Source of the DNA: an uncultured bacterium
GTDB lineage: Bacteria > Verrucomicrobiota > Lentisphaeria > Victivallales > UBA1829
Length of the DNA stretch: 64,000 bases
Direction of reading: 5' to 3'
NCBI GenBank assembly: GCA_902762495.1
Contig: CACWOL010000001.1
Span: 5,548 to 69,547 of the forward strand
Shown here: positions 7,781-58,424 of the stretch, piece after piece
How positions within the stretch are numbered: position 1 is the first letter of the stretch
How the letters are laid out: every line of letters begins with the position of its first letter
Notes under the pieces: generated by a model
What the model was told of the DNA's origin: nothing
Database searches by the model: none
Seen by the model: only the letters and a program-made list of their open reading frames with translations
Position numbers and translations under genes: made by a program

Positions 7781-8308
7781 ATGACAACAGACGAGAAAAC
7801 GGAAAAGACTTGGCGGCGGATCATCATTTGGGCATCCGTCCTGGCGTTCATCGTCGTGATTATAATCCCGCTCCCGTTCCTCATCGACGAGCCCGTCTGC
7901 GTCCAAACCTATCTCAATACCAGGACATTCGAATACGAGTCGTATGTCCGGGTCGGCCCCCTCGTGTTCGAACAGGACAGCGCATCCTTCTTTCAAGGCG
8001 ATCTCGAACCGTACCGGAACGCAGTCCGGCAGGAACGTCTCCCGGAATACTGGATCTGCATCTACATGCAATCCTACACCCTGCTGGGCAGCCCGATCTT
8101 CCACGAGGTCAGAGGTGGCAAATACCCGACGAAACTGCGGTTCTTCCTCATGGAGCATTATCAGGAGATGATGGACCCGGACTACAAGGAGACCGAGGAG
8201 GAATTCTCCGCCCGCTTCACCGATTACATCCTGTCCCTGAATGACGACGAATTTTTTAAACGCGTCCTGCTCCCCGCGGACACCGATCTCCGCGCCCGGT
8301 CCTTCTAA
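7781..8308 (+). CDS. Hypothetical membrane-anchored protein
   Basis: 175-aa ORF with one N-terminal hydrophobic helix (IIIWASVLAFIVVIIIPLPFLI). Codon usage is consistent with its neighbours. I recognise no family. Confidence 0.5.
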   Translation: MTTDEKTEKTWRRIIIWASVLAFIVVIIIPLPFLIDEPVCVQTYLNTRTFEYESYVRVGPLVFEQDSASFFQGDLEPYRNAVRQERLPEYWICIYMQSYTLLGSPIFHEVRGGKYPTKLRFFLMEHYQEMMDPDYKETEEEFSARFTDYILSLNDDEFFKRVLLPADTDLRARSF

Positions 8309-8396
8309 AAAAAAAGCAACACATTGTATATGATGAGATTGTGTAGAAAGTTTTGTATCTAAAGGAATTTTTTTAAAGAATTATTTCTTTTTCGAT

Positions 8397-8424
8397 TTGA
8401 CTTTTCAGTTAAGCGTGCTATAGT
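8397..8424 (+). promoter_or_regulatory. Sigma-70-like promoter of the XRE-ImmA gene
   Basis: TTGACT (8397-8402), 16-nt spacer, TATAGT (8419-8424) preceded by GTGC. GGAGG RBS at 8456-8460 and ATG at 8468. Confidence 0.6.
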
Positions 8425-8467
8425 ATTTTCGTGGAATGTTTTATCACCGTTAACGCGGAGGTACAGA

Positions 8468-9514
8468 ATGGATCAGAATCACTTTAACCCAGCATTGCTA
8501 AAACTCGCAAGAGAAGAGCGTGGTTTTTCCCAAAAGAAACTCGCTCAGGAGCTCTGTATTCAGCAGTCGTCTGTTTGCAAGTATGAAGCAGGTGTCTTGA
8601 TCCCTTCTGACGACACCATTAGGTCTATATCTAAACTATTTGGCTACCAAAGCACATTCTTTTTTCAAGACGATCTCCCCGTCTATTCCGGGTTAATATT
8701 TCATCGCAAACGTACATCTCTGAGTGCCAAGAAACGAATGAGTATTGAAGCTGAAGCACGACTTCGGGCAATCGATGTTCTGCATTTGTTTAAATGGAAA
8801 GGTATGAAGTCCAATATCATTCCACGGGAAAATAGAAAACCGGAAGAAATGGCTCAGGCCCTTCGCGAGCATTGGAACGTAAATGATGGTCCCATCGAGA
8901 ATCTGACAAAACTCCTCGAGGACAACAAAATCGTAATACTCTCCTTCAAATTTGACGCAGAGGAACTGGACGGTTTTGTTCTCAACGTTGATAACATCGT
9001 TTGTATCGCTATGAATAATGATGGGGGCTTTTCCCCGGATCGGCAGAGATTTACGATGTGCCATGAGTTGGCTCACGCTCTTTTGCATCAGAACGTGTTT
9101 CCCGATAAAACAATAGAAGGTGAAGCGGACAGATTCGCGGCAGAGTTCCTCGCCCCCCGAAAAGCAATCGAATCCGACTTGGTTTGGCCCATGACCTTTG
9201 AACAGCTTAAACAGCTTAAAGGCAAGTGGAAGATTTCTATGGCAAGTTTAATTTACAGAGCACATAAACTTGGAACAATTTCAGATGCAATCTATCGCCG
9301 AATCATGATGTATATGTCTTCTCATGGGTTTCGCAAACATGAACCGGAATGCGGACTTGTTCCTGAAACACCAACTTTGCTGAACAACATGATTCAAGAG
9401 TTTCTCGCCGAAACGCAGGATGCTTTATCCGAGTTAAAGCTGTCGGAATGGCGTTTCAATGAAAGATACAAACAATCAGGAGGGCTGTCAGAAATGTCAG
9501 TTGGAAAAGCATAA
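8468..9514 (+). CDS. XRE-family HTH fused to an ImmA/IrrE-type zinc metallopeptidase domain
   Basis: The N-terminus LLKLAREERGFSQKKLAQELCIQQSSVCKYEAG is a Cro/C1-type HTH. The central MCHELAHALLH (HExxH) plus EADRFAAEFLAPR is typical of ImmA/IrrE (COG2856-like). It lies in the AT-rich island. Confidence 0.85.
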   Translation: MDQNHFNPALLKLAREERGFSQKKLAQELCIQQSSVCKYEAGVLIPSDDTIRSISKLFGYQSTFFFQDDLPVYSGLIFHRKRTSLSAKKRMSIEAEARLRAIDVLHLFKWKGMKSNIIPRENRKPEEMAQALREHWNVNDGPIENLTKLLEDNKIVILSFKFDAEELDGFVLNVDNIVCIAMNNDGGFSPDRQRFTMCHELAHALLHQNVFPDKTIEGEADRFAAEFLAPRKAIESDLVWPMTFEQLKQLKGKWKISMASLIYRAHKLGTISDAIYRRIMMYMSSHGFRKHEPECGLVPETPTLLNNMIQEFLAETQDALSELKLSEWRFNERYKQSGGLSEMSVGKA

Positions 9515-9877
9515 AAAAGATAGCGAAATTCAAAAAAGAGAACCTCGCTATCCATAAAGAATGGGTGTGGACCCCAGTCTTTAAAGATAGCATATGAAAA
9601 CTGTTTTTTCAAGTTTTTTGGGTTCTTTTTCTTGAATTTCGCTTCAAAAACGGTCTGTTTTCGGAGTTTTTCTCCCAAAACACAGGTTCTCTTCGACTAC
9701 CAAAAGCACGAAGAGAGTATCGCAAGGGGAATCGCCCTCTGCATGTATGCCCCCAACATATAAGGATACTTTGGGCATACACGGACACATAAAAGAGGGC
9801 GAAACACCTTAATTCCGAACCTTGCGGATTCGTCCGCTGGATGGTAGAACATTCTCTACCAGAAAGAGATTTTTCTC

Positions 9878-10270
9878 ATGAATAATGAAAGATTTATTGT
9901 CCTCGAACACGTCAAGAAAGGCGACATCATCTTTGTTGAAGCCTGCTCACAATGTGCCTCAAAGGCCAAAATCACCCTAGAAGGCGTAAGCCCCACCGTT
10001 GAGCTTGTCAAAAGCACGAACAACTGCAACTTGACAAGACTCGAGGGCGGGTATTCCGCCGAAAAGACTGATGATGGTCCAGTTCAGCTGAAGATCTCCA
10101 TAGACAATGGCTCTAAGATGAAAGTCATCAAGAACGGAACCATTCTCTCCGATATCGAAGGCAAAGAAAAAGGAATACAGTATGTGTTTAACATTGAAGA
10201 TCACGAGAATCTCGACAATGACTTCAATGACTACTTTATTTCTGTCGTCACCTGGCACAAGAAAAACTAA
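9878..10270 (+). CDS. Hypothetical small protein (130 aa), family unknown
   Basis: ORF in the AT-rich island, followed directly by a strong hairpin terminator. The sequence is rich in beta-strand-like alternation and I recognise no motif. Confidence 0.5.
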   Translation: MNNERFIVLEHVKKGDIIFVEACSQCASKAKITLEGVSPTVELVKSTNNCNLTRLEGGYSAEKTDDGPVQLKISIDNGSKMKVIKNGTILSDIEGKEKGIQYVFNIEDHENLDNDFNDYFISVVTWHKKN

Positions 10271-10277
10271 ATGCAAC

Positions 10278-10313
10278 AGCCGGTGGTCCCGGGAGGAACC
10301 ACCGGCTTTTTTT
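10278..10313. terminator. Intrinsic terminator, probably bidirectional (convergent genes)
   Basis: Perfect 10-bp stem AGCCGGTGGT / ACCACCGGCT (10278-10287 and 10298-10307) followed by a T-run at 10307-10313. It lies between the stop at 10270 (+) and the stop at 10328 (-). Confidence 0.8.
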
Positions 10314-10327
10314 AAGGCTACTCGACC

Positions 10328-11029
10328 TCAGCCAAAGGCAAAGAGGTCTGACTCGGGAGATTCTTCCCCTTCACCATGTCCCTCGCCCGAGTGCGTATGA
10401 TTAGCGTATGTATGCCATGTGGGTTCATAACTGCTGTCAGCCTGATTTCCCCACGACACCCAATTCTCGCGCACCCCGCGGGCAAACATTTCCAAGAACG
10501 GCCCCGCACTGCATGCCTCAATGATCGGATAGATTTCATCGGGCTTGCGGGAATGCTCACGTTTCACGCTTCGCACCAAATTAACCTGGCTTCTTGCCGG
10601 AGGAAGTGTCCGGTAGCTGTCGCCTTTCACCCCAAACAAGAGGATTTCCGTGACATTGCGGAAATAGAACCCGACGCCCCGTCCATCCGGATAACCGTCC
10701 TTCCGGACTTTTTCCCAAATGATGTTCGATTTGTACTGGAAGCCCCAGGACCTCAGAACATCCAAGCCTTCGGGCAAAAGAGCGTTGGGAACCCAAAGAT
10801 ACAAATGACAGACAGAATCCGTCACGAAATCAACAGGAATTCTTTTGATGTCGTCCAAAGACATCGTAGAGTAACGGTTCAGGCGTTTATGTTCGGGCGC
10901 AACCTTTCCCGTACGGTTATTGAACTGCCAGGGAGGATCAGCCAACACAGTTCTGAACTTATGCCCCTGACAGGTGTTTAAGAAGCTCTGACAGGTGTTT
11001 TCAAAAGAATAATCGTTTTCCATCGGCAT
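10328..11029 (-). CDS. MT-A70-family N6-adenine DNA methyltransferase
   Basis: VLADPPWQF (catalytic DPPW), HLYLWVPNALLPEGL, WGFQY..IIWEK, EILLFGVKG, REHSRKPDE, LEMFARG..W..WGN. This is the typical MT-A70 motif order. Confidence 0.88.
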   Translation of the reverse strand: MPMENDYSFENTCQSFLNTCQGHKFRTVLADPPWQFNNRTGKVAPEHKRLNRYSTMSLDDIKRIPVDFVTDSVCHLYLWVPNALLPEGLDVLRSWGFQYKSNIIWEKVRKDGYPDGRGVGFYFRNVTEILLFGVKGDSYRTLPPARSQVNLVRSVKREHSRKPDEIYPIIEACSAGPFLEMFARGVRENWVSWGNQADSSYEPTWHTYANHTHSGEGHGEGEESPESDLFAFG

Positions 11030-11042
11030 AGTCGATCACCTC

Positions 11043-11693
11043 CTATTTCTGAATGCAGGCAGGCGTGATTCCGATCGCCAGAATCGGGCATCCCCCATGT
11101 CTGCGGGAATCCAATCGCGGAAGAAGCTTTCCCATCCAAGTTGTACTGGCTCCATACTTGGCTTTGACTCCCAATTCATCGAATATCTGATTCAAAGATT
11201 CCGCTCTCGTAATAATCACTCCTGCGCTGATAATGTCACATTCGTAATAGGTCCGCATTGCAAACAGGTCCCGGTCAAAAGTCTGGTCTTTACTGTTCCA
11301 CTCGAAGTCAACAGCAACACGGTTTTTCACGAAGTCGATATTATGACCGTCAATATAGTTTGAAATCGTTTTTTCATCAAACGGAATATCTGAGAAAGCA
11401 CCTTTTCTGCCCTTGCGAGGGTAGAACTTGATAATCAAATCTCCGGATATTCTGATCTCTTCCCAGCCTCGCGGCTCTAAAGAAACAGCCAGTTTCGGCG
11501 GAATTGAAGACTCGTTCCCTCCAGCTGTGGTAATGTCGGCAATCGTTATCTGAAAACTCTTCAGGGCTTGGCAGACCTCATCCCACTCAGCCGGGAATGA
11601 TTGAGACAAAATCTCGGCGGCATGATTGTAATTGAAGCACTCGTATTTTTCCAGGATCTCCGCCGGAATCCATTTTTCCAAGGTCTGCGCCAT
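11043..11693 (-). CDS. Putative type II restriction endonuclease (BglII/BamHI-like)
   Basis: 216-aa ORF 13 nt upstream of the methylase on the same strand. The segment IDFVKNRVAVDFEWNSKDQTFDRDL resembles the acidic catalytic core of BglII/BamHI-type enzymes (from memory). The assignment rests on context plus this motif. Confidence 0.6.
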   Translation of the reverse strand: MAQTLEKWIPAEILEKYECFNYNHAAEILSQSFPAEWDEVCQALKSFQITIADITTAGGNESSIPPKLAVSLEPRGWEEIRISGDLIIKFYPRKGRKGAFSDIPFDEKTISNYIDGHNIDFVKNRVAVDFEWNSKDQTFDRDLFAMRTYYECDIISAGVIITRAESLNQIFDELGVKAKYGASTTWMGKLLPRLDSRRHGGCPILAIGITPACIQK

Positions 11694-11775
11694 ATTTCCC
11701 CCAATCTTACGTTATTGATACAGTCAAAAAATAAAACCATGCTTTCGCATGATAATATGTACTTTCTTGAATCCA

Positions 11776-11813
11776 CCCGGGATGGATTTGAGGTCCATTC
11801 CGGGTAGTTTTTT
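11776..11813 (+). terminator. Orphan terminator-like hairpin with T-run on the plus strand
   Basis: Arms CCCGGGATGGA (11776-11786) and TCCATTCCGGG (11794-11804) with one mismatch and a 7-nt loop, then TAG + TTTTTT (11808-13). No plus-strand CDS ends nearby. Confidence 0.4.
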
Positions 11814-11822
11814 GCTCGCGCG

Positions 11823-11860
11823 GCGCAATCTGTCAGGTTCGAGTCCTGACAGAGTTGCGC
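11823..11860. other. Long hairpin whose apex mimics a tRNA T-arm (not a tRNA gene)
   Basis: GCGCAATCTGTCAGG-TTCGAGT-CCTGACAGAGTTGCGC, a stem of about 15 bp with one bulge. The apex TCAGG-TTCGAGT-CCTGA equals the canonical T-stem/loop. It lies 15 nt downstream of the hydA stop and at the GC-content transition. Confidence 0.5.
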
Positions 11861-11874
11861 TTTGTTACGCCGCC

Positions 11875-13617
11875 TCAGAATTTCTTTCGGGCGGTGTAGG
11901 AGGTGTGGAGGAGCTTGTGGGCCAAGTGGCTGCCGGGCTCGCCGAGGTATTCTTCGTAGAGCTTCTGGATGGACTTGTTCTGGTGGGACTTGCGGATCGG
12001 GTGATTCAGGTCGTCCTGATAGAGCGCTTCCATACGCTTGCGGATGATCTCGGTGTTACCGTGGTGGTAGGGCTGGCCGCCGCCGTCGATGCAGCCGCCG
12101 GGGCACGCCATGATCTCGATGGCGTGGTACTTGGCTTCGCCGGCTTTGATCTTCTCGAGGAGCTTGCGGGCGTTGCCGAGGCCGGAGCAGATCGCGGCTT
12201 TGAGCTTGATGCCGCCGACGTCGACTTCGGCTTCCTTGATGCCTTCGAGGCCGCGGACAGGCGTGTAGTCGATCTCCTGAACGTCCTTGCCGGAGAGGAT
12301 GTCGGCCGCGGTACGGAGCGCGGCTTCGAGCACGCCGCCGGACGTACCGAAGATGGTGGCCGCGCCGGTACCTTCTCCGAGCGGAGAATCGTATTCGGAA
12401 TCCTCGAGCTTGTCGAACTGGATGCCGGCTTCGTGGAACATCTCGGCGAGTTCACGGGTGGTGAGGACGATATCAACGTCGCGGACGCCGTCGCGGGTGA
12501 ACTCGGGACGGGCGGCCTCGTACTTCTTGGCGAGGCAGGGCATGACGGAGACGACGATGAGGTCTTCCGGCTTGATGCCGGTCTTCTCGCAGTAGTAGCT
12601 CTTGGCGATCGCGCCGAACATCTGCTGCGGGGACTTGGCCGTGGAGGGCATATAGGTAAGTTCGGGGAACTGGTGTTCGAGGAACTTGACCCAGCCGGGG
12701 CAGCAGCTGGTGAGGATCGGGAGATTCTCGTTCTTCTTGATGCGTTCGATCAGCTCGGTGCCCTCTTCCATGATGGTGAGGTCGGCGGAGAAGTTGGTGT
12801 CGAACACCTTGTCCGCGCCGAGCATCTTCAGGGCGGTGACCATCTTGCCGGTGCTGATGGAGCCGGGTTCCATGCCGAAGGCCTCGCCGATGGCGACACG
12901 GACGGCCGGAGCGGTCTGGAAGACGACGGTCTTGGACTTATCGTTGAGGGCACGCCAGACGTCGTACTTGTAGTTGATCTCGGTGAGAGCACCGACAGGG
13001 CAGGCCTGAACGCACTGGCCGCAGAAGACGCACTGGGTGTCGGCGAGCTTCTTGAGGCCAGCGGGAGCGACGACGGCGTTGAATCCGCGGCCGACGCCGG
13101 AGAGGACGCCGACGGTCTGGATGTTGTTGCAGGCGTTTTCGCAGCGGCGGCACATGATGCATTTGTCAAGGTCGCGGCGGATGGCGGCGCTGCTCTCGTC
13201 GAGCTCGTACGTGGACTGCTCGCCGCTGTACTGCAGGTTGTGGACGCCGAGCTCTTCGGCGATCTTCTGGAGTTCGCAGTTCAGGCTCTTCGGGCAGGTG
13301 AGGCAATCTTTCGGGTGGTCCGAAAGGAGCAGGTCGAGGATGGCGCGGCGCGCGTTGATGGCGCGGAGCGTGTTGGTGTGGACGACCATGCCTTCCATGA
13401 CGGGCGTGCAGCAGGCGGGGGCCAGGTTGGGGCGCTTTTCGACCTCGACGACGCAGATACGGCAGGAACCGCATCTGTGCTCGACGTGGAACGCATCCAT
13501 CTTGAAATGGCAGAGAGTCGGGATTTTGATATCGAGTTTTTCCGCGGCTTCGAGGATGGTGGAACCGGCCTCGACGGCTACGGGCTTGTTGTTGATGGTA
13601 AGATTGACTGTGCTCAT
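11875..13617 (-). CDS. hydA: [FeFe] hydrogenase catalytic subunit, HydABC (bifurcating) type
   Basis: Start chosen at ATG 13617 (MSTVNLTINNKPV). It has an N-terminal 2Fe-2S ferredoxin-like domain and several Cys clusters. All three H-cluster motifs are present: LTSCCPGWV, VMPCLAKKYEA, EIMACPGGCIDGGGQP. Confidence 0.92.
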   Translation of the reverse strand: MSTVNLTINNKPVAVEAGSTILEAAEKLDIKIPTLCHFKMDAFHVEHRCGSCRICVVEVEKRPNLAPACCTPVMEGMVVHTNTLRAINARRAILDLLLSDHPKDCLTCPKSLNCELQKIAEELGVHNLQYSGEQSTYELDESSAAIRRDLDKCIMCRRCENACNNIQTVGVLSGVGRGFNAVVAPAGLKKLADTQCVFCGQCVQACPVGALTEINYKYDVWRALNDKSKTVVFQTAPAVRVAIGEAFGMEPGSISTGKMVTALKMLGADKVFDTNFSADLTIMEEGTELIERIKKNENLPILTSCCPGWVKFLEHQFPELTYMPSTAKSPQQMFGAIAKSYYCEKTGIKPEDLIVVSVMPCLAKKYEAARPEFTRDGVRDVDIVLTTRELAEMFHEAGIQFDKLEDSEYDSPLGEGTGAATIFGTSGGVLEAALRTAADILSGKDVQEIDYTPVRGLEGIKEAEVDVGGIKLKAAICSGLGNARKLLEKIKAGEAKYHAIEIMACPGGCIDGGGQPYHHGNTEIIRKRMEALYQDDLNHPIRKSHQNKSIQKLYEEYLGEPGSHLAHKLLHTSYTARKKF

Positions 13618-34547: not shown

Positions 34548-34982
34548 ATGGAGACAAAAATGCCAAAGCGAAACAAACCAGAAACTCAGATTGTCGGCAA
34601 TACTGGTATGTACTATGTTTGCTATCAACTCTCGCTCATGGGATGGAATGTTATGCCTACTGCTCGAAATGCAAGAGGTGTTGATGTAATTGCATATAAT
34701 CTCGACAGCGGTAAATATCGTAGCATTCAAGTAAAAACTCTATCCTATCGGAATCAAATTCCGCTCGGCAGAAGTATTAACAAAATTCTAGCTGATTATT
34801 GGATTATAGTTGTTTTGTCTGATTCTGAGGCTCCATCTGTTTATATTCTCAGTCAAAAAGAAATGGAATCGATTCAAATATATCAGAGAACTAATAAGAA
34901 AGGAGAGGTTTCTTTTTGGTTGCTGACTTCAGCATATGAGGGACCTGAATACAAAAACAGATGGGATAAAATACAACCGTAA
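34548..34982 (+). CDS. Small PD-(D/E)xK-like (Hjc/restriction-endonuclease-fold) protein
   Basis: 144-aa ORF in an AT-rich islet. GNTGMYYVCYQL..ARGVDVIAYN..YRSIQVKT fits the D..(E/Q)xK core of small nuclease-fold proteins. This is motif-level inference only. Confidence 0.5.
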   Translation: METKMPKRNKPETQIVGNTGMYYVCYQLSLMGWNVMPTARNARGVDVIAYNLDSGKYRSIQVKTLSYRNQIPLGRSINKILADYWIIVVLSDSEAPSVYILSQKEMESIQIYQRTNKKGEVSFWLLTSAYEGPEYKNRWDKIQP

Positions 34983-39434: not shown

Positions 39435-40265
39435 TTATCTTTCCAAAAAATGGGGATTGGTCGGTACGGCGGAGGGAACGTCCTCCGATTCTTCCTCTTC
39501 GGCGGCGGGATCCCGCCAAAAGGGATCGTACAGGGAATCGTCGGGGGACAGATAGCCGACACGATCCTCCCAGCCGGACGAATCCGCGGGACGCGGCGTG
39601 AAAGACTGCCAGGACGCCGCATGACCGTCCACGAACGCTACTGTGCAGGCTTTGGAATGCCGGAAGTCGGCGTAACCGCCCCTGCCCGAGGACGGATTGT
39701 ACAGATATGCGGTCGGCGCGGGGCGTCCGTCGGTTCCGGTCAGAAAACACGCGGCGTCGGCGAGCAGGACCAGCCGCGACGGCGTTTTGACGGTCTGGAT
39801 GCGACAGGGACGGAAGTTCGGCGGCGACGCGGACGGCCCGCTGAAGGAGAGCTGGTAGTTCATACCGTATCCGGCGTAACGCGCGGTCCAGGCGAGATTG
39901 GAGTAGAGGGCGGATTTCGCGGCGGGACACTCGAAGACGCGCCCCTTCGCCGCACCGGAATCCGGCACGAGGCGCGAGAGGATGCCAGGCCCTCGGTGAT
40001 CGGCGGAGGATTCCCAGCTCGCAAACGAAGAATCCCACGCGGGGCAGAAATACCCGCCGCTCGCATCGACATAAAGGAGATGCATCAAAGTGACTTCGCG
40101 GATGTTGCCGAGGCAGAGCGCCAGACGGGCTCGGTCCCGCGACGACGACAGCGCAGGCAGGAGCAGTCCGGCCAGGATCGCAATGATCGCGATCACGACC
40201 AGAAGCTCGACCAGGGTAAAGCGGCGCACGGCGGCTCCGGAAAATATACGGACTTGCTGTTTCAT
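39435..40265 (-). CDS. Prepilin-type N-terminal cleavage/methylation domain protein with H-X9-DG C-terminal motif
   Basis: RRFTLVELLVVIAIIAILAGLLLPAL (a class III signal) and, near the C-terminus, RHSKACTVAFVDGH, which is H, 9 residues, then DG. It also has FECP. The alternative frame 39379-40290 is rejected. Confidence 0.85.
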   Translation of the reverse strand: MKQQVRIFSGAAVRRFTLVELLVVIAIIAILAGLLLPALSSSRDRARLALCLGNIREVTLMHLLYVDASGGYFCPAWDSSFASWESSADHRGPGILSRLVPDSGAAKGRVFECPAAKSALYSNLAWTARYAGYGMNYQLSFSGPSASPPNFRPCRIQTVKTPSRLVLLADAACFLTGTDGRPAPTAYLYNPSSGRGGYADFRHSKACTVAFVDGHAASWQSFTPRPADSSGWEDRVGYLSPDDSLYDPFWRDPAAEEEESEDVPSAVPTNPHFLER

Positions 40266-50983: not shown

Positions 50984-53065
50984 ATGAGATCGAAATCCTG
51001 GAACCGTTTTCTGGCCGCATTCATGATCGTTTTTGCGCTGCTCCTGGGCGCCTGCCAGAGTACCGAGCCGGAGGAAGCGCCCGCCGACGAAACGGCGATT
51101 GCGGAACCCACCGGTCCCTGGCCGACCGCGCGCCTGATCGGCGAGCTCTCCGGGCATGACCCGATTGAAGGCTTCAACCGGAGCATGTTCGAGGTCGACT
51201 GCGTGATCATGGACTACATCGCGCGCCCGCTGGGCTGGATCTGGTCCAGCGTTCTGCCGCGCCCCGTGATCCAGTGCATCGAAAACGCCTGCCACAACCT
51301 CGCGTTCCCCGGCCGCCTCGTTTCCTCGCTCGGCAGCGCCGAGTTCGAATGCGCGGGCGTCGAGACGGGGCGTTTCCTGCTGAACTCCACCGTCGGCATC
51401 GCCGGGCTCTTCGACCCCGCCGAATACTGGTTCCACCTCTACAAGACCGACGCCGATTTCGGGCGCATGTTCGCCACCTGGGGAATCGGCCCGGGCTGCC
51501 GCCTCATCATCCCCGGCAGCCGGCACATCAACATCCGCGACGACGTCGGCAGCATCTTCGACTATCTGCTTGACATCCGCACCTACCTGCCCTACTCCAG
51601 CTGGGCGTACGTCAACAACGTCGTGGCGATGCATCCGCAGTTCATAAACGTGATCAAGGGGTCCGCCGACCCGTACCGCACCTACGTGATGATGCAGCTC
51701 CTGAACCGCGAACTCCAGCTCGACAAGTGGTACTACGACTACGCGAAGGACGTCTACCACAACCGCCTGCCCGAGCTCCCGCCCGATCAGGGCACCACGA
51801 TGCCGGAAAGCCTCCACGGCCGCCGCAAGGTCCTGAAGGACTACCATTCGCTCGGACCCGTGATCGACACCCTCCGCGCGATCTACTTCGTACCGCAGAA
51901 GGACCACGACTGGTGGTACGCGCGCCTCTCCATCTTCAACTCCGACTTCGAGGACAAGATCCACACGCGCAAGGTCACGGTCGGCATCGACCCCGAACGC
52001 TCCCGCCTCAGATACGGGTTCTTCGAAGCGCCAAAGCCGAAGGACGAGAACGAAGTACGGCCTGAAAAGCTCGCCATCGTCATCCCCGGCATCGGCAGCA
52101 TCTACAACAGCCAGACCGCCCTCGCCACCGCCGAGGAGTTCTACAACGCCGGATACAGCGTCGTGCTCGTCGACAACGGATTCAACTGGCGCTTCATGAC
52201 CGCCACCGACGGCAAGCTGCCCGGATACACCCCGCACGACGCCGCCAAGATGCGCACCGTGCTGCAGAAGATCCTCGCCGATCTCCGCGAAGACGGCAAG
52301 ATCAAGGACCCGCGGATCGTCCTCACCGGCTGGTCCATGGGCGGCATCGAGCTCTGCCACATCGCCGCCATGGAGGAGAAGGAAAACACCCTCGGCATCA
52401 GCCGTTATCTCCCCATCAACCCGCCCGCCGACCTGATCACGGCGCTGCAGACCGCCGATTCCTATGCCGCCGTGACGAAGGACTGGACCTTCGACGAGGC
52501 CGTGGAAAAGGTCTCCTCCGGGGCCGGACTCCAGTACGTCCTCACGAAAGAGGTGATCCCGCCGCTCGATCCCGAAAAGCCGGAGACGTTCACGCGTCCG
52601 CCGCTCGTCGGCGACGACGTTGCCAAGTTCTTCGTGGCGTTCTCCATCCAGAGCTGCCTCACCGAAGACCTGGAGAAGACCCAGCGCGAGGGCAAGTATC
52701 CCCTCCCGATCTCCGCCCCCTGCACCATGTTCAACCGCGAGGACTTCTACCGCGAGGTCGGCGACATCGGGTTCATGGAGTACATCACGCGCTTCCTCTT
52801 CCCCCAGATGGGCAAGGATATCAGCGAACTCGACAAGCTCGCCGCCGAATCCGGACTCCGCGCCGTCGAATCCACGCTCAAAAACAACAAGTCCGTCCGC
52901 ATGATCCATTCCTGGGACGACATCCTCATCAACGATGCCGACCGCAAGTTCCTCGACGAGACACTCGGCGACCGCATCACCTGGTTCTCCAACGGCGGCC
53001 ACTGCGGCCAGTTCTACACCAAAGCCTTCCGCGAAGAGCTCCTCTCCCGCGCCGAAGAGGAGTAA
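50984..53065 (+). CDS. Fusion lipoprotein: MlaA/VacJ-like domain plus C-terminal alpha/beta-hydrolase domain
   Basis: Lipobox LLLGAC. GFNRSMFEVD..LNSTVGIAGLFDPA is MlaA/VacJ-like. The C-terminal half has the LTGWSMGG nucleophile elbow and later SWDD..GGHCG (candidate Asp/His). Confidence 0.7.
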   Translation: MRSKSWNRFLAAFMIVFALLLGACQSTEPEEAPADETAIAEPTGPWPTARLIGELSGHDPIEGFNRSMFEVDCVIMDYIARPLGWIWSSVLPRPVIQCIENACHNLAFPGRLVSSLGSAEFECAGVETGRFLLNSTVGIAGLFDPAEYWFHLYKTDADFGRMFATWGIGPGCRLIIPGSRHINIRDDVGSIFDYLLDIRTYLPYSSWAYVNNVVAMHPQFINVIKGSADPYRTYVMMQLLNRELQLDKWYYDYAKDVYHNRLPELPPDQGTTMPESLHGRRKVLKDYHSLGPVIDTLRAIYFVPQKDHDWWYARLSIFNSDFEDKIHTRKVTVGIDPERSRLRYGFFEAPKPKDENEVRPEKLAIVIPGIGSIYNSQTALATAEEFYNAGYSVVLVDNGFNWRFMTATDGKLPGYTPHDAAKMRTVLQKILADLREDGKIKDPRIVLTGWSMGGIELCHIAAMEEKENTLGISRYLPINPPADLITALQTADSYAAVTKDWTFDEAVEKVSSGAGLQYVLTKEVIPPLDPEKPETFTRPPLVGDDVAKFFVAFSIQSCLTEDLEKTQREGKYPLPISAPCTMFNREDFYREVGDIGFMEYITRFLFPQMGKDISELDKLAAESGLRAVESTLKNNKSVRMIHSWDDILINDADRKFLDETLGDRITWFSNGGHCGQFYTKAFREELLSRAEEE

Positions 53066-53091: not shown

Positions 53092-53116
53092 GGTTGTTTC
53101 CAAAATGGAAATAACC
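53092..53116. promoter_or_regulatory. Palindrome 1 upstream of the paralog array
   Basis: GGTTGTTTCCA-AAA-TGGAAATAACC, with 11-nt arms and one mismatch. Confidence 0.6.
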
Positions 53117-53138: not shown

Positions 53139-53163
53139 AACTGTTTCCAAAATGGAAATAGTT
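53139..53163. promoter_or_regulatory. Palindrome 2 upstream of the paralog array
   Basis: AACTGTTTCCA-AAA-TGGAAATAGTT. It shares the 19-nt core TGTTTCCAAAATGGAAATA with palindrome 1, lies 47 nt from it and ends 14 nt before the ATG at 53177. Confidence 0.6.
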
Positions 53164-53176
53164 CATCAGAAAGGAA

Positions 53177-53779
53177 ATGACGATGGATTGGAAACAGCAG
53201 TTCAAAGTTCATGATCTCAGCTTCCGGGAGACCATTATCATTCTCCTGGTGGTCGCGGTTTGTGAGGTTATCCTGATGTTTATCTTCCCCTGGCGGGGGC
53301 CGGTTTGGAATGCAGTCACTCGCTGCGGGATCAACCAAAGGTCGATCTACAGAATCATGAGCAGGGTTCCCGACGGGGACGAATTCGAGCTGCCGCCCGA
53401 ATGGACCGTCGCCGACCTGATCCGGGAGGCGGTCAGGAAAGACCGTCAATCGCCCCACCCCATGGAGGAAAATTATTTTATCTGCCGGAATATCAGTAAA
53501 GTACGCGAATGCGATTTTCCCTATGACCTTCGGCCCTATCTGGTGTTTCCGGTGCCCGCCTCGGTCGTGTTCGACGAATCGCTTCAGAAGCCCGTTCCGA
53601 TCCTCATGTGCTGGCCGGGCGCGCATGACGGCAAACACTGCTCGATGGTCCTCTACTCCGATGGAACAACGAACCCCCTGACCCCGGAAGAAGCGGAAAA
53701 GCTCGTTGCCGAGTATTCGCCCGTGCCGCTGGAGATAGAATTTGAAACCGGGCCGGAAGAGGACAGGGAATCGCAATAA
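53177..53779 (+). CDS. Paralog 1 of a tandem five-member family (membrane-anchored, function unknown)
   Basis: MTMDWKQQF.., TM helix, PPEWTVADLIREAV, RPYLVFPVPASVVFDESL, PVPILMCWPGAHDG, VLYSDGT..LTPEEAEKLVAEYSPVP. Confidence 0.65.
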   Translation: MTMDWKQQFKVHDLSFRETIIILLVVAVCEVILMFIFPWRGPVWNAVTRCGINQRSIYRIMSRVPDGDEFELPPEWTVADLIREAVRKDRQSPHPMEENYFICRNISKVRECDFPYDLRPYLVFPVPASVVFDESLQKPVPILMCWPGAHDGKHCSMVLYSDGTTNPLTPEEAEKLVAEYSPVPLEIEFETGPEEDRESQ

Positions 53780-53825
53780 TCGGATATTTTGTCTAATATG
53801 CTGTCAATGAAAGGAATCTAATGCT

Positions 53826-54098
53826 ATGACACAGTACGGAGCGATCAAAGTCTTTGAACACAAACGGATCCGTTCCTCCTGGGACGAGGAAACCGAAACA
53901 TGGTATTACTCCATCGTCGATGTGGTCGGCATTCTGACCGATCAGCCGGACGCCCGGCACGCCTCCAACTATTGGAAAGTTCTCAAAAACCGTTTAGCCA
54001 AAGAGGGTTGTGAGTTGGTTACAAATTGTAACCAACTGAAAATGCCCGGTGCCGACGGTAAACTTTACAAGACCGACGTCGCGGGAGGTCCGTCATGA
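53826..54098 (+). CDS. Bro-N/antirepressor-like N-terminal domain, apparently truncated (90 aa)
   Basis: IKVFEHKRIRSSWDEETETWYYSIVDVVGILTDQPDARHASNYWKVLKNRL..NCNQLKMPGADGKLYKTDVA matches the N-terminal part of Bro-N family proteins I remember from phage and Bacteroidota. It ends abruptly where paralog 2 begins (ATGA overlap). Confidence 0.6.
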   Translation: MTQYGAIKVFEHKRIRSSWDEETETWYYSIVDVVGILTDQPDARHASNYWKVLKNRLAKEGCELVTNCNQLKMPGADGKLYKTDVAGGPS

Positions 54099-54781
54099 AA
54101 AACGTTTTACTCATCTTTCTGGTGATTCTGCTTGTACTCATCGGGGGATGTATCTTTCTGGAACCGTATCAGCATCACGCGATCCATGCGCGGCTCTACG
54201 CCACGGATTGTATAGGGTCGCTCGGGCACATAGGTCATATCCTGTATTATCTGGCGAGGCCCGATGAAGAACCGGTACTGCTGAACGCAAGCGTGATCGT
54301 CGTATCGGCTGACGGGGAAAGGGTTTCGGAACCGTGGTCGTGGCGGCGGGAAGGGGACATCCCCCCGGAGATTACACAGGACACCACGATTCTTGATTTG
54401 ATTCAGGAAGCTGTGCGCCGGGGGGATCTAGGCAGTGAAAGGCTTTGTTGCCCGTACAGCAAGCGTCCCTATCTGGTATTCCCCGTGCCCGCTTCGGTCC
54501 TGCTTCAGCCCGAGGATCCGCAGCACCGGATCCCGATTGTCATGGATTGCCCGGATTCCCACATGGAGACCGATTTCAGGGTGAAGCTCTTCATGGCGCG
54601 GGATTCGCACACCGGGAAGAAATACCACCTCACGGCGCGCGTTCTGTACGCGGACGGCGGTGTCGGAACGATCAGCATGGAGGAGGCCGAACAGCTCGTT
54701 TCGAATTATTCGCCCGTGCCGTTCGAGCTGAAACCGGAAACAACCGACGGAACCGGCGTCCGGTCCGGCGACGGCGAGTAA
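54095..54781 (+). CDS. Paralog 2 of the tandem family
   Basis: TM helix, TTILDLIQEAV, CCPYSKRPYLVFPVPASVLL, RIPIVMDCPDSH, VLYADGG..ISMEEAEQLVSNYSPVP. Confidence 0.65.
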   Translation: MKNVLLIFLVILLVLIGGCIFLEPYQHHAIHARLYATDCIGSLGHIGHILYYLARPDEEPVLLNASVIVVSADGERVSEPWSWRREGDIPPEITQDTTILDLIQEAVRRGDLGSERLCCPYSKRPYLVFPVPASVLLQPEDPQHRIPIVMDCPDSHMETDFRVKLFMARDSHTGKKYHLTARVLYADGGVGTISMEEAEQLVSNYSPVPFELKPETTDGTGVRSGDGE

Positions 54782-54858
54782 ATCGCCGCCCGGAATCATC
54801 TGTTTGAACATACTTTTTTTCGCTTTTTTGTTTTTTCCTATTGGTTTTTCCGGCGGCC

Positions 54859-54870
54859 TGTGGTATAATA
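54859..54870 (+). promoter_or_regulatory. Extended -10 promoter element inside the paralog array
   Basis: TGTGGTATAATA, which is TGn + TATAAT, about 165 nt upstream of the ATG at 55034. Confidence 0.5.
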
Positions 54871-55033
54871 GTTAGAGAAGCTTTTATTTGACGGGCAATC
54901 GCAACAACAAGTCCTGAGGGCGAATGACAACGGAAAAGAAAACGTGGAAAAAGATTTGGAACGCGCGCGTTCAAAATCCGTCATGGACGCGTTTCCGCAT
55001 CGCGCTTCGGGGTGATCCGAAGGGCATGATCCG

Positions 55034-55687
55034 ATGAAAACAGCGGACAAAATGGTGCGGACCATGCCGTTCTGGAAGTCATGTTCGACGGTCCTGTGGA
55101 TCTTCCTGATCCTGTGTATCGTGTCCACGGTCCTGCATAATTGCGGGCATGACGCATGGGGGAATACATGGGGGCTGTTCCATAAATGCACGGACAACCT
55201 CAAATGTATTTTCTGGACCGCCTGCGAGGCGGCGAAATGCTACGACGGAACCGGGGAGGAACAGCAGGAGCTCCCGCCCGGGATGACGTTTTACGACCTG
55301 ATCCGGGAACCGGATCCGGCGGCATTGTTCGGCTCGGAAGAAGACCGGTTTGTCTGCCCGAAAGACGGACAGCCGTACCTGGTGTTTCCTGTCTCCGCCG
55401 CCGAAGTCCTCGATTATTTCCAATACGAGGCAATGCTCCGCGACGGAGCGAAGCCGGAACGCGAGCTCCGGGCGTTCCCGCTCGCCATGTGCCCCTGTAC
55501 CCATTCCAAACTCGGTGAAAGAAACGATCCGCAATACGTTCTGATCCTGTATTCGGACGGTACGATCAAGCCCAAAACGCCCGAGGAAGCCGAAGCGATC
55601 GCCGCGGGACAGTCGCTCCGCCCGATCGGTCCCTCAAAACCAAAGGACAAATGGAAATGGCTGAAAGACCTGACAAAGATCCGGTAA
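55034..55687 (+). CDS. Paralog 3 of the tandem family (most divergent)
   Basis: TM helix, PPGMTFYDLIRE, FVCPKDGQPYLVFPVSAAEVL, FPLAMCPCTH, LILYSDGT..KTPEEAEAIAAGQS. The start is uncertain because several in-frame ATGs are available. Confidence 0.6.
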   Translation: MKTADKMVRTMPFWKSCSTVLWIFLILCIVSTVLHNCGHDAWGNTWGLFHKCTDNLKCIFWTACEAAKCYDGTGEEQQELPPGMTFYDLIREPDPAALFGSEEDRFVCPKDGQPYLVFPVSAAEVLDYFQYEAMLRDGAKPERELRAFPLAMCPCTHSKLGERNDPQYVLILYSDGTIKPKTPEEAEAIAAGQSLRPIGPSKPKDKWKWLKDLTKIR

Positions 55688-56340
55688 GCCCTGCGAAACA
55701 GGGGGAAAGCGGCACCGTCCGGGCGTATCATCTGATATGGTTCATTGTGATCGCGGCGGCGATCTTCGTGCTGATGGGGATACTTCTGCCGCCATTGGGG
55801 CCGGTGAGACCCGGCCCGGTTGCCACTGACTGCCGATCCGGTCTTTTTGCCGGGTGGAAAGAATTGAGATACGATCTGCCGGAGCAGTACAAGGACAAGA
55901 CTGGGAATCCGCCGCCGGAGTGGACCGTCCCGGACCTGATCCGCGCGGTAAACAAGTCGTGGAATAGAAGCCGTCCGCTTTTCTCATCCTGCCCCGTGTG
56001 CTTCCTCCCGGAAGACAAAGGCGGGCGGAAGCAGGGGTATCTGGTGTTTCCCGCGCCCGCCTCGGTCGTGTTGTTCGACGATTCGCTCCGTCCGCCCGTC
56101 CCGATCGTCATGGACCTGCCCGGCACACACGGCGATTTCTACGGCACGAACGTCCTTTTCTCCGACGGGACCGTGATTTCGCTGACCACGGAAGAGGCGG
56201 AAAAACTCGCCGCCGAACAGTCGCCCGTGCCGATCGAGGAGGTCTACCGGAACGATCAGGAGGCGGAACAACATCTTTCCGCACAGTCGCCGGAGCAGAC
56301 CGGCACGGATTCCGGTATTCAACCCGAGGAGGGCAAATGA
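55651..56340 (+). CDS. Paralog 4 of the tandem family
   Basis: TM helix, PPEWTVPDLIRAV, GYLVFPAPASVVLFDDSL, PVPIVMDLPGTHGDFYGTNVLFSDGT, LTTEEAEKLAAEQSPVP. It overlaps paralog 3 by 37 nt if the first ATG is used. Confidence 0.62.
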   Translation: MEMAERPDKDPVSPAKQGESGTVRAYHLIWFIVIAAAIFVLMGILLPPLGPVRPGPVATDCRSGLFAGWKELRYDLPEQYKDKTGNPPPEWTVPDLIRAVNKSWNRSRPLFSSCPVCFLPEDKGGRKQGYLVFPAPASVVLFDDSLRPPVPIVMDLPGTHGDFYGTNVLFSDGTVISLTTEEAEKLAAEQSPVPIEEVYRNDQEAEQHLSAQSPEQTGTDSGIQPEEGK

Positions 56341-56945
56341 TCATGGATTGGAAGAAGCAGTTCGACATCCACAAAGAATCAAGCGGCATTATAATAATAT
56401 GCGTCATCCTCCTGATCGCGGTGCTCGTGGATTTTCTTTTCTCCCCAATATGCTCAAAAAGTGCGGCCCTTTCCCGCCATTGTATCGCAAATCTGAACGT
56501 TATCCCCAAATACATGTATTACACGGCGGAAGAAATGGAACCGGAAGACCTGGCGAAAATGACGGTCGCCGACCTGTTTCAGGAGTCGATCCGCAAATGG
56601 AAGATGAAGAAAGATCAGGTCGTCTGCCCCATTGACGGTCGGCCGTATGATATCTTCCCTCTGTCCGCCGCCGAGTTTGTCCGGGGTTTCGAATCCGGGG
56701 ATCATCCGGTCCCAGTCGTCATGTGCCGCGGCACGCATGTGAAAGATGTAAGGGGATGGTCCGGCTGGTACAAAACATACTACGGAACGCCGGTCGTTTA
56801 TATGGACGGGCTCAGAGAATTGAGCCGGGAAGAGGCGGAGAAACTCGTTTCGGAGTTATCACCAAAACCGATAGAGTTTCCGACACAACAGGCCGCCGGA
56901 CCGGACGACTCATCATCCGGTCATCCGTCCGATTCGACACCTTGA
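56337..56945 (+). CDS. Paralog 5 of the tandem family
   Basis: In ORF 55998-56945 I chose ATG 56337 (MIMDWKKQF, parallel to paralog 1 MTMDWKQQF), which makes an ATGA overlap with paralog 4. MTVADLFQESI, VVCPIDGRPYDIFPLSAAEFV, PVPVVMCRGTH, LSREEAEKLVSELSPKP. Confidence 0.62.
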   Translation: MIMDWKKQFDIHKESSGIIIICVILLIAVLVDFLFSPICSKSAALSRHCIANLNVIPKYMYYTAEEMEPEDLAKMTVADLFQESIRKWKMKKDQVVCPIDGRPYDIFPLSAAEFVRGFESGDHPVPVVMCRGTHVKDVRGWSGWYKTYYGTPVVYMDGLRELSREEAEKLVSELSPKPIEFPTQQAAGPDDSSSGHPSDSTP

Positions 56946-57194: not shown

Positions 57195-58424
57195 TTATTT
57201 CGCAGTCGGATCGTTGACGCGGCCCGCGAAGAGGACGAGTCCGGTCTGGTTGTCGCGGATGAGGACCATGAACGGACGGTCGGCGCGGAACTGGTGGACG
57301 GGGTCGGGCATGCCGATGGAGGTGATCCTCGCCATGCCGATGGCGGTGGCGGCGGCGGCCTTCGTGGAGACTTCGTCCATCTTCAGAGCGGTCTTGTGCA
57401 CCACGTTTTCGATCTTGAGCGCTTCCTCGGTGTCGATGCCGGAGAAGTCGGCGAAATTGGAGAACGGGGTCTTCATGCCGAGGCCCTGGAGGGTCTTGTT
57501 GAGATCGAGCTTGCAGGTCAGGTCGGTCTTCGGCAGCCAGACGCGCGTTTCGCCGCCCTGACGGCTTCCGAGCCAGGCGTCAAGCTTGTCGCCGATGGAG
57601 GCGGCCATCTTCGCCAGCGCGGCTTCGCCGTGGTCGGTCCCGCCGTCGATCGGCATGAGCGCGACGAGTTCGAAGCGGCGGTTTTCGTAGGGCAGGACGA
57701 TGGCGTGGACGTTGTCCTGAGGCGCCGCGCAGTAGGCGATGCCTTTGCTCTTCTGGTACATCATCTGGACTTCCTTCTCCGCGCCGCCGAACTGCGTGAA
57801 GACCATCGGCTTCGTGTCGTCCTTCGGGAACGGGTTCGCCCATTTCGCCTCGAAGTACAGCGTGTTCAGCAGGACCATGGAGGAATCCTTGCTGAAGAAA
57901 TCGGGCGTGAGGAGGTCCTTGATCATGTTTTTCGTGCGGGCTTCGACGTAGGCGTTGATCTTCGCGGCGACCTTTGCGGACTGGCCGAAATCCTCCTTGT
58001 AGAACGCACCGCCGTAATACTTTTTGATCATTTCGGTGAATTCGGGCAGCACATTCTGGTCCGTGTCGGTCCAGACGGAGTTGGAGACCAGGACTTCGGT
58101 CTTTTCCGCCTCGGCGTACTGTTTCGTGACGGAGTCGAAGAACGCGCCGCAGGTCGCGGGATCGGCGGGCAGGCCGAGCACCTTGCGGATCTCGTCGGCG
58201 GTCGTGCCCTTCGCGCCGCAGTAGACCATGCCGAACGCGCCGTCGATGCTGAACGGCGAGATGAACATGTTTTTCTTCGCGTCCGCCTTGCAGACGGTAT
58301 CGAAGAGCTTGAAGCCCTGACGGTTCAGTTCGGCGGCGACCTTCTGGTCGGCGGCTTCGTCGGCGAACGCGGGCAGCGCGACGCTCATGGCACACAGGGC
58401 GGCGTGAAACAGTGTTTTTTTCAT
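57195..58424 (-). CDS. Serpin-family protease inhibitor with signal peptide
   Basis: Signal peptide MKKTLFHAALCAMSVALPAFA. NMFISPFSIDGAFGMVYCGAKGTTADEI, an Ala-rich hinge DEVSTKAAAATAIG, and the C-terminal FRADRPFMVLIRDNQTGLVLFAGRVNDP. Confidence 0.9.
   Translation of the reverse strand: MKKTLFHAALCAMSVALPAFADEAADQKVAAELNRQGFKLFDTVCKADAKKNMFISPFSIDGAFGMVYCGAKGTTADEIRKVLGLPADPATCGAFFDSVTKQYAEAEKTEVLVSNSVWTDTDQNVLPEFTEMIKKYYGGAFYKEDFGQSAKVAAKINAYVEARTKNMIKDLLTPDFFSKDSSMVLLNTLYFEAKWANPFPKDDTKPMVFTQFGGAEKEVQMMYQKSKGIAYCAAPQDNVHAIVLPYENRRFELVALMPIDGGTDHGEAALAKMAASIGDKLDAWLGSRQGGETRVWLPKTDLTCKLDLNKTLQGLGMKTPFSNFADFSGIDTEEALKIENVVHKTALKMDEVSTKAAAATAIGMARITSIGMPDPVHQFRADRPFMVLIRDNQTGLVLFAGRVNDPTAK

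Follow-up and report, generated by a model that had tools for sequence, protein, structure and literature searches.

A 64,000-nucleotide stretch of contig CACWOL010000001.1 from an uncultured rumen Victivallales bacterium (the whole stretch is referred to below as the window) contains an array of five related genes at positions 53177-56945 of the plus strand, and the locus raises the question of what kind of protein these genes encode. A preliminary description made from the DNA sequence had suggested a lineage-specific, rapidly diversifying family of membrane-anchored proteins, possibly stripped-down forms of the H-X9-DG pseudopilin-like proteins that lack the prepilin leader. Our analysis suggests that the five genes are probably functional paralogs, that they form a divergent, shortened offshoot of the DUF1559 family (PF07596, SBP_bac_10), and that their products probably remain in the inner membrane as uncleaved bitopic proteins.

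Relationship of the array proteins to DUF1559

The genes, designated W1 (53177-53779), W2 (54095-54781), W3 (55034-55687), W4 (55651-56340) and W5 (56337-56945), encode proteins of 200, 228, 217, 229 and 202 amino acids, respectively. All five open reading frames (ORFs) are intact, lie on one strand and were found at the starts and in the size range (200-229 residues) first reported for them. Pairwise identity of the other paralogs with W1 is 34-39%, and 23 alignment columns are invariant; these columns fall exactly within the conserved blocks quoted in the preliminary description, all of which are present. As that description also held, every paralog has a single N-terminal hydrophobic helix, seen as one strongly hydrophobic 19-residue segment with a mean Kyte-Doolittle value of 2.3-3.4. 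Two cysteines, C50 and C103, occur in every one of the five proteins, with a conserved Pro nearby, and both are at least 90% conserved in 73 family members. The C-terminus that follows the Asp-Gly (DG) strand is specific to the family and consists of a helix (EEAEKLVAE), an SPVP(I/L)E motif and an acidic tail.

The inability to assign these proteins to a named family, noted at the outset, was borne out by the library searches. Neither Pfam nor NCBIfam gave a match at E<1 for the five paralogs, a PHROGs scan gave no meaningful match, and DUF3139 and RuvA_C, the best library matches for the family, were rejected as chance-level. Database copies are all named 'hypothetical protein [Lentisphaeria bacterium]'. 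We found 375 homologs in a set of 5.8 billion proteins, and an exhaustive profile search of 1.84 billion representative proteins (clusters at 50% identity, library-wide E values) yielded 106 clusters at E<=1e-3, of which 39 had E<=1e-10. All six genome matches (6/6) were to metagenome-assembled genomes of rumen Lentisphaeria/Victivallales. Thus, the family is small, restricted to rumen Lentisphaeria (Victivallales) and without a name in the libraries searched, in agreement with its description as lineage-specific.

The weak tail of the exhaustive search (E 1e-7 to 1e-3) points to the relatives of this family: of the 55 that were scanned, N_methyl (PF07963) is present in 37 and DUF1559 in 36. 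The consensus of the tail reads FTLIELLVVIAIIA..LLPA...AR..A....C..NL.QIG.A...YA.D..G..P....CP....H....N.L..DGHV. When the 73-sequence family alignment was compared by hhalign with 22 prepilin proteins of the tail, the probability was 98.5% (E 2.4e-15) over the full length, 97.7% (E 1.4e-12) with the membrane helix cut from both sides, and 89% (E 2.3e-6) for the C-terminal halves only, which aligned in the register H..(G)xN-VLY-x-DG-x-V; these values are inflated because the set was chosen by its score to the family profile. Because the tail set had been picked in this way, we built two independent comparison sets from relatives of the prepilin protein encoded in the window itself (39435-40265, minus strand). 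Against the independent set of Pfam-DUF1559-positive proteins, hhalign gave 91.8% (E 7.3e-7) over 103 columns, with the helix at one end and the CP and PY motifs at the other; helix-less and C-terminal-half comparisons with this set were weak (E 0.006 and 0.014, respectively) and in the correct register. Against the divergent subfamily of the window prepilin, the value was 89% (E 2e-6) with the helix included.

The family and DUF1559 have invariant residues of the same kinds and in the same sequence (C, C-P, H and D-G), and both groups share the succession helix-Pro, C..NL..I, CP and H..N-VL(Y/F)-DG. In the alignments with DUF1559 sets A4 and A6, C50 and C103 match the invariant C and C-P. Two database proteins, P0168 (with a zinc ribbon and TM2) and P0175, have DUF1559 Pfam matches together with non-prepilin anchors and bridge the two groups. 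As judged from profiles and motifs, the family is therefore very likely a distant branch, reduced in length, within the DUF1559 / H-X9-DG superfamily, and the earlier suggestion of leaderless, stripped-down pseudopilin-like proteins is backed both by the specificity of the search tail and by profile-profile comparison (98.5% with the tail-selected and 91.8% with the independent set).

The spacing between His and DG deserves separate mention. The preliminary description had counted 11 residues in W4, and direct reading gives the same result (H-GDFYGTNVLFS-DG). W1 also has 11 residues, many relatives have 10 (e.g., HGKLGANVLFSDG), and W2, W3 and W5 contain longer insertions, so that the exact H-X9-DG spacing (TIGR04294) does not occur in the paralogs. 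Despite the different spacing, the residues around DG (N-VL(F/Y)-x-DG-x-V) fit the canonical H-X9-DG pattern. Because the prepilin motif, the Pfam model and the X9 spacing are all lacking, the family is a leaderless variant related to DUF1559 / H-X9-DG and not a member of a named family. It should be noted that the bona fide H-X9-DG prepilin of the window also misses the Pfam DUF1559 model, which thus does not cover all relatives.

In the pilin fold, an N-terminal hydrophobic helix continues into an amphipathic helix packed on a small antiparallel sheet, and a variable region is disulfide-bonded. The array proteins keep a pilin-type order of elements: the hydrophobic helix, a helix-breaking Pro, an alpha1C helix with C..NL..I, an alpha-beta loop ending in Cys-Pro, and a small beta-sheet, with H..N-VL(Y/F)-DG-(T/S)V on its final strands. 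In an AlphaFold2 model of W1 (73 sequences; predicted local distance difference test score (pLDDT) 80.4; predicted template modelling score (pTM) 0.68), residues 16-36 and 42-62 form helices separated by a kink at the Pro/Gly stretch, and these are followed by a loop helix (78-90), five short strands and a C-terminal helix (170-180). The elements are ordered likewise in the model of the window prepilin (pLDDT 89.4), whose loop region is longer and which has no such C-terminal helix. A Foldseek search with the W1 model returned a best E value of 2.2 in PDB and nothing below E 1 in BFVD. The prepilin control was equally bare and found only the N-terminal helix of a gonococcal pilin (E 0.78). Since a bona fide prepilin gave the same outcome, the blank result for W1 says nothing about its fold and was dropped as evidence against a pilin fold; because the control found only a pilin helix, PDB offers no usable template for the DUF1559-like domain.

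In principle, the family could resemble DUF1559 through convergence or composition and represent an unrelated, new periplasmic fold. The missing Pfam and NCBIfam matches, the missing Foldseek matches (subject to the equally blank control) and the non-significant helix-less similarity to one DUF1559 subfamily would all fit such a view. However, we give it only a small chance, as the two groups share four invariant motifs that are identically ordered and similarly spaced, hhalign probabilities reach 91.8-98.5%, helix-less and C-half comparisons are significant against short DUF1559 forms, intermediate sequences have DUF1559 Pfam matches, and the tail of the exhaustive search picks out DUF1559 rather than generic single-pass proteins.

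In Planctomycetes, Verrucomicrobia and Lentisphaerae, few paralog families are as large as that of the DUF1559 / H-X9-DG proteins. Our literature search on DUF1559 / H-X9-DG found no functional study. In Planctopirus limnophila, 68 DUF1559 paralogs have been counted, two of which are essential, and their function is not known (PMC10632474). The array family resembles DUF1559 in the order of an alpha1 helix, Pro, a C..NL..I(G)....Y helix and x-C-P, followed by a beta strand ending in an acidic residue or Cys and by H..(G)xN-(V/I)L(F/Y)-x-DG-x-V; the invariant Cys pair, His and Asp-Gly are common to both, as are the many paralogs in genomes of the Planctomycetes-Verrucomicrobia-Chlamydiae (PVC) group. 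In contrast to DUF1559, the family has neither the G-F-T-L-I-E-L-L cleavage/methylation motif nor Glu+5, its domain falls short of the canonical forms (roughly 250-300 residues) by about 60-100 residues, it possesses its own C-terminal helix with an acidic tail and a conserved, predicted cytoplasmic tail, and its genes are organized in tandem arrays at one fixed chromosomal site.

The N-terminus and the predicted membrane topology

The prepilin protein of the window, which had served as the comparison in the preliminary description, has the leader RFTLVELLVVIAI, FECP and H-SKACTVAFV-DG, and it matches TIGR02532 and N_methyl. Its leader, FECP block and H-X9-DG signature are as described; the strand is to be given as minus. 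Neither N_methyl nor TIGR02532 is matched by any of the five paralogs or of the 73 members, and the prepilin pattern [GAS][FMLIY][TS][LI]xE has no occurrence in the core family. The position before the conserved Phe (-1) is Ser in 54 of 62 N-termini of the W1/W5 type, and Glu+5 is absent throughout the family. The absence of a canonical prepilin leader, which had been noticed at first reading, was thus supported by each of these comparisons. In searches against PDB sequences, the family profile matched no pilin and gave no other hit; the canonical DUF1559 profile matches about 20 PDB pilins, through the N-terminal helix.

These data bear on the possibility that the proteins are relaxed substrates of the class III peptidase, in which case the 15-residue N-terminal peptide would be a long type IVb-like leader and the mature proteins would be minor (pseudo)pilus subunits. 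The motifs and the modelled fold resemble those of pilins, the Pro that follows the helix lines up with the LLP motif of pilins, and a Gly is kept at the helix boundary in W5 (SSG-IIIIC), P0122 (SPG-MLIC), and P0127 and P0131 (LGF-R). However, according to established work on Pseudomonas pilin, the -1 position is known to tolerate only Gly and, weakly, Ala, and in the family this position is mostly Ser and Glu+5 is missing throughout. In addition, proteins of the W2 type have only MKN before the helix, those of the W4 type have no Gly at the helix boundary, and the strongly conserved tail of other members resembles a retained functional segment rather than a discarded leader. We therefore regard processing as a class III substrate as distinctly unlikely.

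Another possibility is that the helix is a cleavable Sec signal peptide (in W2, a lipoprotein signal) and that the domain is soluble or lipid-anchored in the periplasm. This explanation also appears unlikely, if somewhat less so. The helix is N-terminal and is followed by Pro/Gly-rich, helix-breaking residues, W2 contains a lipobox-like LIGGC, and W5 has S-A-A about 10 residues past the helix. On the other hand, the paralogs have no conserved A-x-A site in common, their long and very hydrophobic stretches are typical of anchors, and in a pilin fold the helix would run on into alpha1C. The lipoprotein reading of W2 was rejected, as its Cys is not conserved in orthologs (Tyr in P0085 and P0113).

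We favor the view that the array proteins are uncleaved. Prepilin peptidase would not cut them, and they would not polymerize into a pseudopilus; instead, they would stay in the inner membrane in an N-in/C-out bitopic topology, with the pilin-like domain in the periplasm and probably tied by a C50-C103 disulfide. The N-terminal tail of W1, MDWKQQFKVHDLSFR, is conserved and predicted to be cytoplasmic. Since few segments of the family are as well conserved as the MDWKxQFKVHDLSFR tail of the W1/W5 types, this tail is presumably retained and functional, and it may be available to partners; the same may hold for the C-terminal helix (EEAEKLVAE-SPVP with the acidic tail). One may speculate that the domain binds a ligand or partner at the envelope, as DUF1559 domains presumably do, from a fixed membrane position, or, alternatively, that it interacts with pseudopilus machinery.

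Several observations weigh against this interpretation. Besides the inflation of the tail-set values mentioned above, hhalign found no significant similarity to the window-prepilin subfamily when the membrane helix was removed, and a Pfam search with the 73 family members returned nothing relevant at E<5, DUF1559 and N_methyl included. The Gly retained at the helix boundary in W5, P0127 and P0131 makes processing possible for some members. Finally, no gene for type II secretion system (T2SS) or type IV pilus (T4P) machinery was found in the window.

The modelled W1 protein would share its general architecture with T2SS pseudopilins (GspG-K) and type IV pilins. It differs from them in that the family profile matches no PDB pilin, no class III signal is present and no assembly genes occur nearby. 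Further parallels are leaderless DUF1559-like proteins with other anchors, i.e., P0168, P0175, P0174/P0180/P0183/P0187 and P0163/P0165/P0181. Like the array family, these have a predicted periplasmic DUF1559-like domain without a prepilin motif and a different membrane segment; some share an 'EAE.L' helix after DG (DEAERLLAELE in P0175), and some share the CPSS..PYLV.P and VPIVFD.PG.H blocks. They are, however, distant (E 1e-7 to 1e-3), carry other N-terminal modules, are not known to form arrays, and none has been named or studied. Taken with the array family, these proteins suggest that the domain is not confined to filament subunits but can also act as a fixed module of the periplasm. P0163, P0165 and P0181 are large proteins (930-1239 residues) with four tandem DUF1559-like domains of the pattern C..NLKQ...CP...H..GGN/HVLY-x-DG and no prepilin leader.

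A variable array between conserved flanks

We retrieved 27 loci of the family (6 from genomes, 1 from IMG/VR and 20 from metagenomes). Wherever enough sequence was available, the genes formed same-strand tandem sets of 1-6 copies. In 13 further loci, purF and then a gene for an MlaA-hydrolase fusion are directly upstream of the array, and the fusion proteins of these loci are 75-93% identical. In the window, the fusion gene (50984-53065, plus strand) codes for 693 residues; an MlaA lipoprotein domain (Pfam MlaA, 6.6e-37, residues 58-234) is joined in it to a C-terminal alpha/beta-hydrolase-like region, which matches Abhydrolase_6 weakly. On the other side, a convergent gene on the minus strand (57195-58424) codes for a full-length serpin of 409 residues (Pfam Serpin, 1.7e-93).

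The content of the array varies far more than these flanks, as expected for the diversifying family that had been proposed. The closest genome locus, L001, has W1-W3-W4-W5 and two more copies, and orf90 (an ORF located between W1 and W2 in the window) and W2 are missing. In another locus, L024, purF, the MlaA-hydrolase gene and the serpin gene are 97.7%, 93.5% and 98.5% identical to those of the window, respectively, and the array consists of a W2 type (72%), a distant W4-like copy (37%) and a W5 type (86%). The locus is thus a variable cassette array between conserved chromosomal flanks. If the proteins work as proposed above, this variability could reflect selection for diversity.

In rough comparisons of single pairs with L001, the ratio of nonsynonymous to synonymous substitution rates (dN/dS) was 0.38-0.67 for array genes, 0.075 for purF and 0.27 for the MlaA-hydrolase gene, and the synonymous rate (dS), likewise from single pairs, was 0.09-0.24 for array genes and 0.27-0.32 for the flanks. 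The G+C content at third codon positions (GC3) was 0.69-0.73 in the array versus 0.85-0.89 in the flanks. These values therefore suggest a weaker constraint on the array proteins and a probable exchange of cassettes between lineages.

The elevated dN/dS (flanks, 0.08-0.27), the lower GC3 and the variable copy content could also be read as signs that the genes are decaying, functionless remnants of prepilin genes. This is hardly credible, as all five frames are intact, ATGA translational coupling is preserved, dN/dS stays below 1, and the conserved blocks are invariant across paralogs that are about 35% identical and are kept in about 39 clusters and 27 loci. Decay, which had been raised earlier as a condition to be checked, is not indicated by the frames, the rates or the blocks. 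The array had also been thought to result from recent duplication, and this idea was not supported: an identity of only about 35% among the paralogs points to old duplications, even though genes do come and go in the array, and the DNA blocks they share are short, with 60-85% identity. A DNA repeat search of the paralogs revealed no sign of recent duplication or gene conversion, and a family profile search found no sixth copy elsewhere in the 64-kb window.

The individual genes show further features. In W1, the key residues are C50, C103, H150 and D162-G163, the hydrophobic helix spans residues 19-37, and the C-terminal block is EEAEKLVAE-SPVP. Gene calls in databases begin at 53183, which is the probable true start; the corresponding protein, P0001 (198 residues), is 100% identical. 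In W2, where only MKN precedes the helix, a 20-30 residue insertion separates the conserved His from the VLYADG strand. The L001 ortholog of W3 is 89% identical. The start of W4 overlaps the end of W3 by 31-37 nucleotides, and orthologs of W4 start at the position equivalent to 55657, which would give 227 residues. This protein has the most pilin-like features of the five, with LLPPLGP after the helix and the His-to-DG segment quoted above. W5 begins with an ATG inside a longer GTG-initiated ORF that starts at 55998, and its tail MxMDWKxQF is common to W1 (DNA repeat family D6). Both of the ATGA stop/start overlaps reported previously are real (orf90/W2 at 54095-54098 and W4/W5 at 56337-56340).

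Strict synteny suggested a functional link to MlaA, which we did not adopt, since the RGIG6930 locus and L007 have a Sel1-repeat gene upstream in place of the MlaA-hydrolase gene. More generally, a Sel1/TPR-repeat gene is directly upstream where the MlaA-hydrolase neighbor is missing (L004, 611-1381; L005, 677-2131; L007, 6780-7412), and the association of the array with MlaA may be purely positional. The source of L007 is a 98.5-kb contig labelled viral by IMG/VR. The MlaA-hydrolase fusion itself is possibly relevant to outer-membrane lipid turnover. The serpin has an N-terminal signal-like segment, and its L024 counterpart bounds the array there too.

Variable pilin loci are known from other bacteria, such as the pilA allele groups with accessory genes in Pseudomonas aeruginosa and the pilS cassettes in Neisseria. 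By analogy, the array may be compared with them, as in each case genes of a pilin-type fold (a presumed one for the array) lie at a fixed chromosomal site and their content differs strongly between close relatives. In contrast to those loci, each copy in the array is a full gene that has its own start and anchor, and silent cassettes, recombination signals and surface exposure are not evidenced. The array is a clear strain-variable locus in uncultured rumen Victivallales, and it could be used as a strain-typing marker or as an entry to the envelope diversity of these organisms; for a small, lineage-restricted family, the practical significance is modest.

Inserted genes, candidate regulatory sites and other features of the window

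orf90 (53826-54098, plus strand) codes for 90 residues and is not a member of the family. It had been described as a truncated Bro-N fragment. The ORF exists, and the word truncated is fair, as it matches the N-terminal third of phrog_15286 (positions 4-83 of 274, E 5.7e-28), a family of phage proteins without assigned function. The Bro-N label found no match: Pfam searches did not detect PF02498 at E<0.1 to 1, and NCBIfam gave no match. The ORF is kept as a 90-residue protein in a 19-member cluster from many Lentisphaeria contigs. Copies or remnants of it are directly before W2-type genes in L006 (6373-6534) and L024 (7783-7944), and remnants occur near the arrays of L009, L011 (639-896) and L014 (1495-1752). 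A tblastn search of a phage collection with orf90 returned only three unannotated human-gut phage contigs.

In three other arrays, a gene for a YhcG/DUF1016 PDDEXK nuclease is located between family copies (L006, 7148-8212; L026, 663-1715; L008, 4-555), with Pfam E values of 5.5e-52 and 9.1e-44. Its insertion in three arrays suggests that the array acts as a landing site for mobile or defense-type genes. orf90 was compared with the array-inserted nuclease and found to be unrelated.

These insertions are one reason to consider a more specific hypothesis, namely that the array serves to diversify a set of pilin-fold proteins that resist cleavage, sit in the inner membrane and engage the pseudopilus/T4P assembly platform or periplasmic ligands, possibly as a pilin-mimic exclusion or immunity system. 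Such proteins would block or modulate the pilus- or secretion-dependent entry of phages or of competitors' effectors. The hypothesis would explain the hypervariable content between conserved flanks, the GC3 of the array below that of the flanks, the lower dS (which suggests exchange between lineages) and the recurrence of a phage-derived ORF and of a YhcG-type nuclease gene at these loci. We consider it a long shot; if true, it would provide the first functional handle on the DUF1559 superfamily and a case in which the domain works without filament assembly.

Two candidate regulatory sites were found around the array. The 112-nucleotide gap between the MlaA-hydrolase gene and W1 contains two perfect 19-nucleotide direct repeats, TGTTTCCAAAATGGAAATA, at 53095-53113 and 53142-53160 (plus strand; 47 nucleotides apart; repeat family D7), each of which holds the palindrome TTTCCAAAATGGAAA. 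With up to 2 mismatches allowed, only these two copies occur in the window, where 0.2 would be expected, and both are kept at the same place in L001 (9921-9935 and 9968-9982). By its sequence, the pair looks like candidate regulator-binding (operator) sites or the promoter region of the array. The second site lies in the 253-nucleotide gap preceding W3, where an internal promoter had been placed at 54859. The candidate promoter (54841-54869, plus strand) consists of TTGGTT, a 17-nucleotide spacer and TGGTATAAT, with a T-rich tract before it. The sequence TGGTATAAT (54861-54869) is a perfect extended -10 element and upholds that proposal in part; the -35 element (TTGGTT) is weak, and a scan for consensus sigma-70 promoters did not call the site. 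With 4 promoter-like sites versus 2.3 expected, the region is not enriched in them, and the scan showed no enrichment of terminators either. An internal promoter before W3 is nonetheless plausible.

The gene for the bona fide prepilin stands alone, adjoining NuoE/NuoF-like and ferredoxin-oxidoreductase genes, and no pilus or secretion genes were found near it. Its GC3 (0.74) is below that of its neighbors, as in the array genes. The rest of the window is of a housekeeping nature, with RecA, GyrB, FtsK, NuoE/F-like and Fe-hydrogenase-like proteins. Two patches of the window, 8001-12000 and 34548-34982, have a low G+C content (0.44-0.49 versus about 0.60 elsewhere), and the ORFs at 8468-9514, 9878-10270, 10328-11693 and 34548-34982 have a GC3 of 0.31-0.58 versus 0.8-0.9 in neighboring genes; judging from this composition, the patches are possibly acquired DNA.

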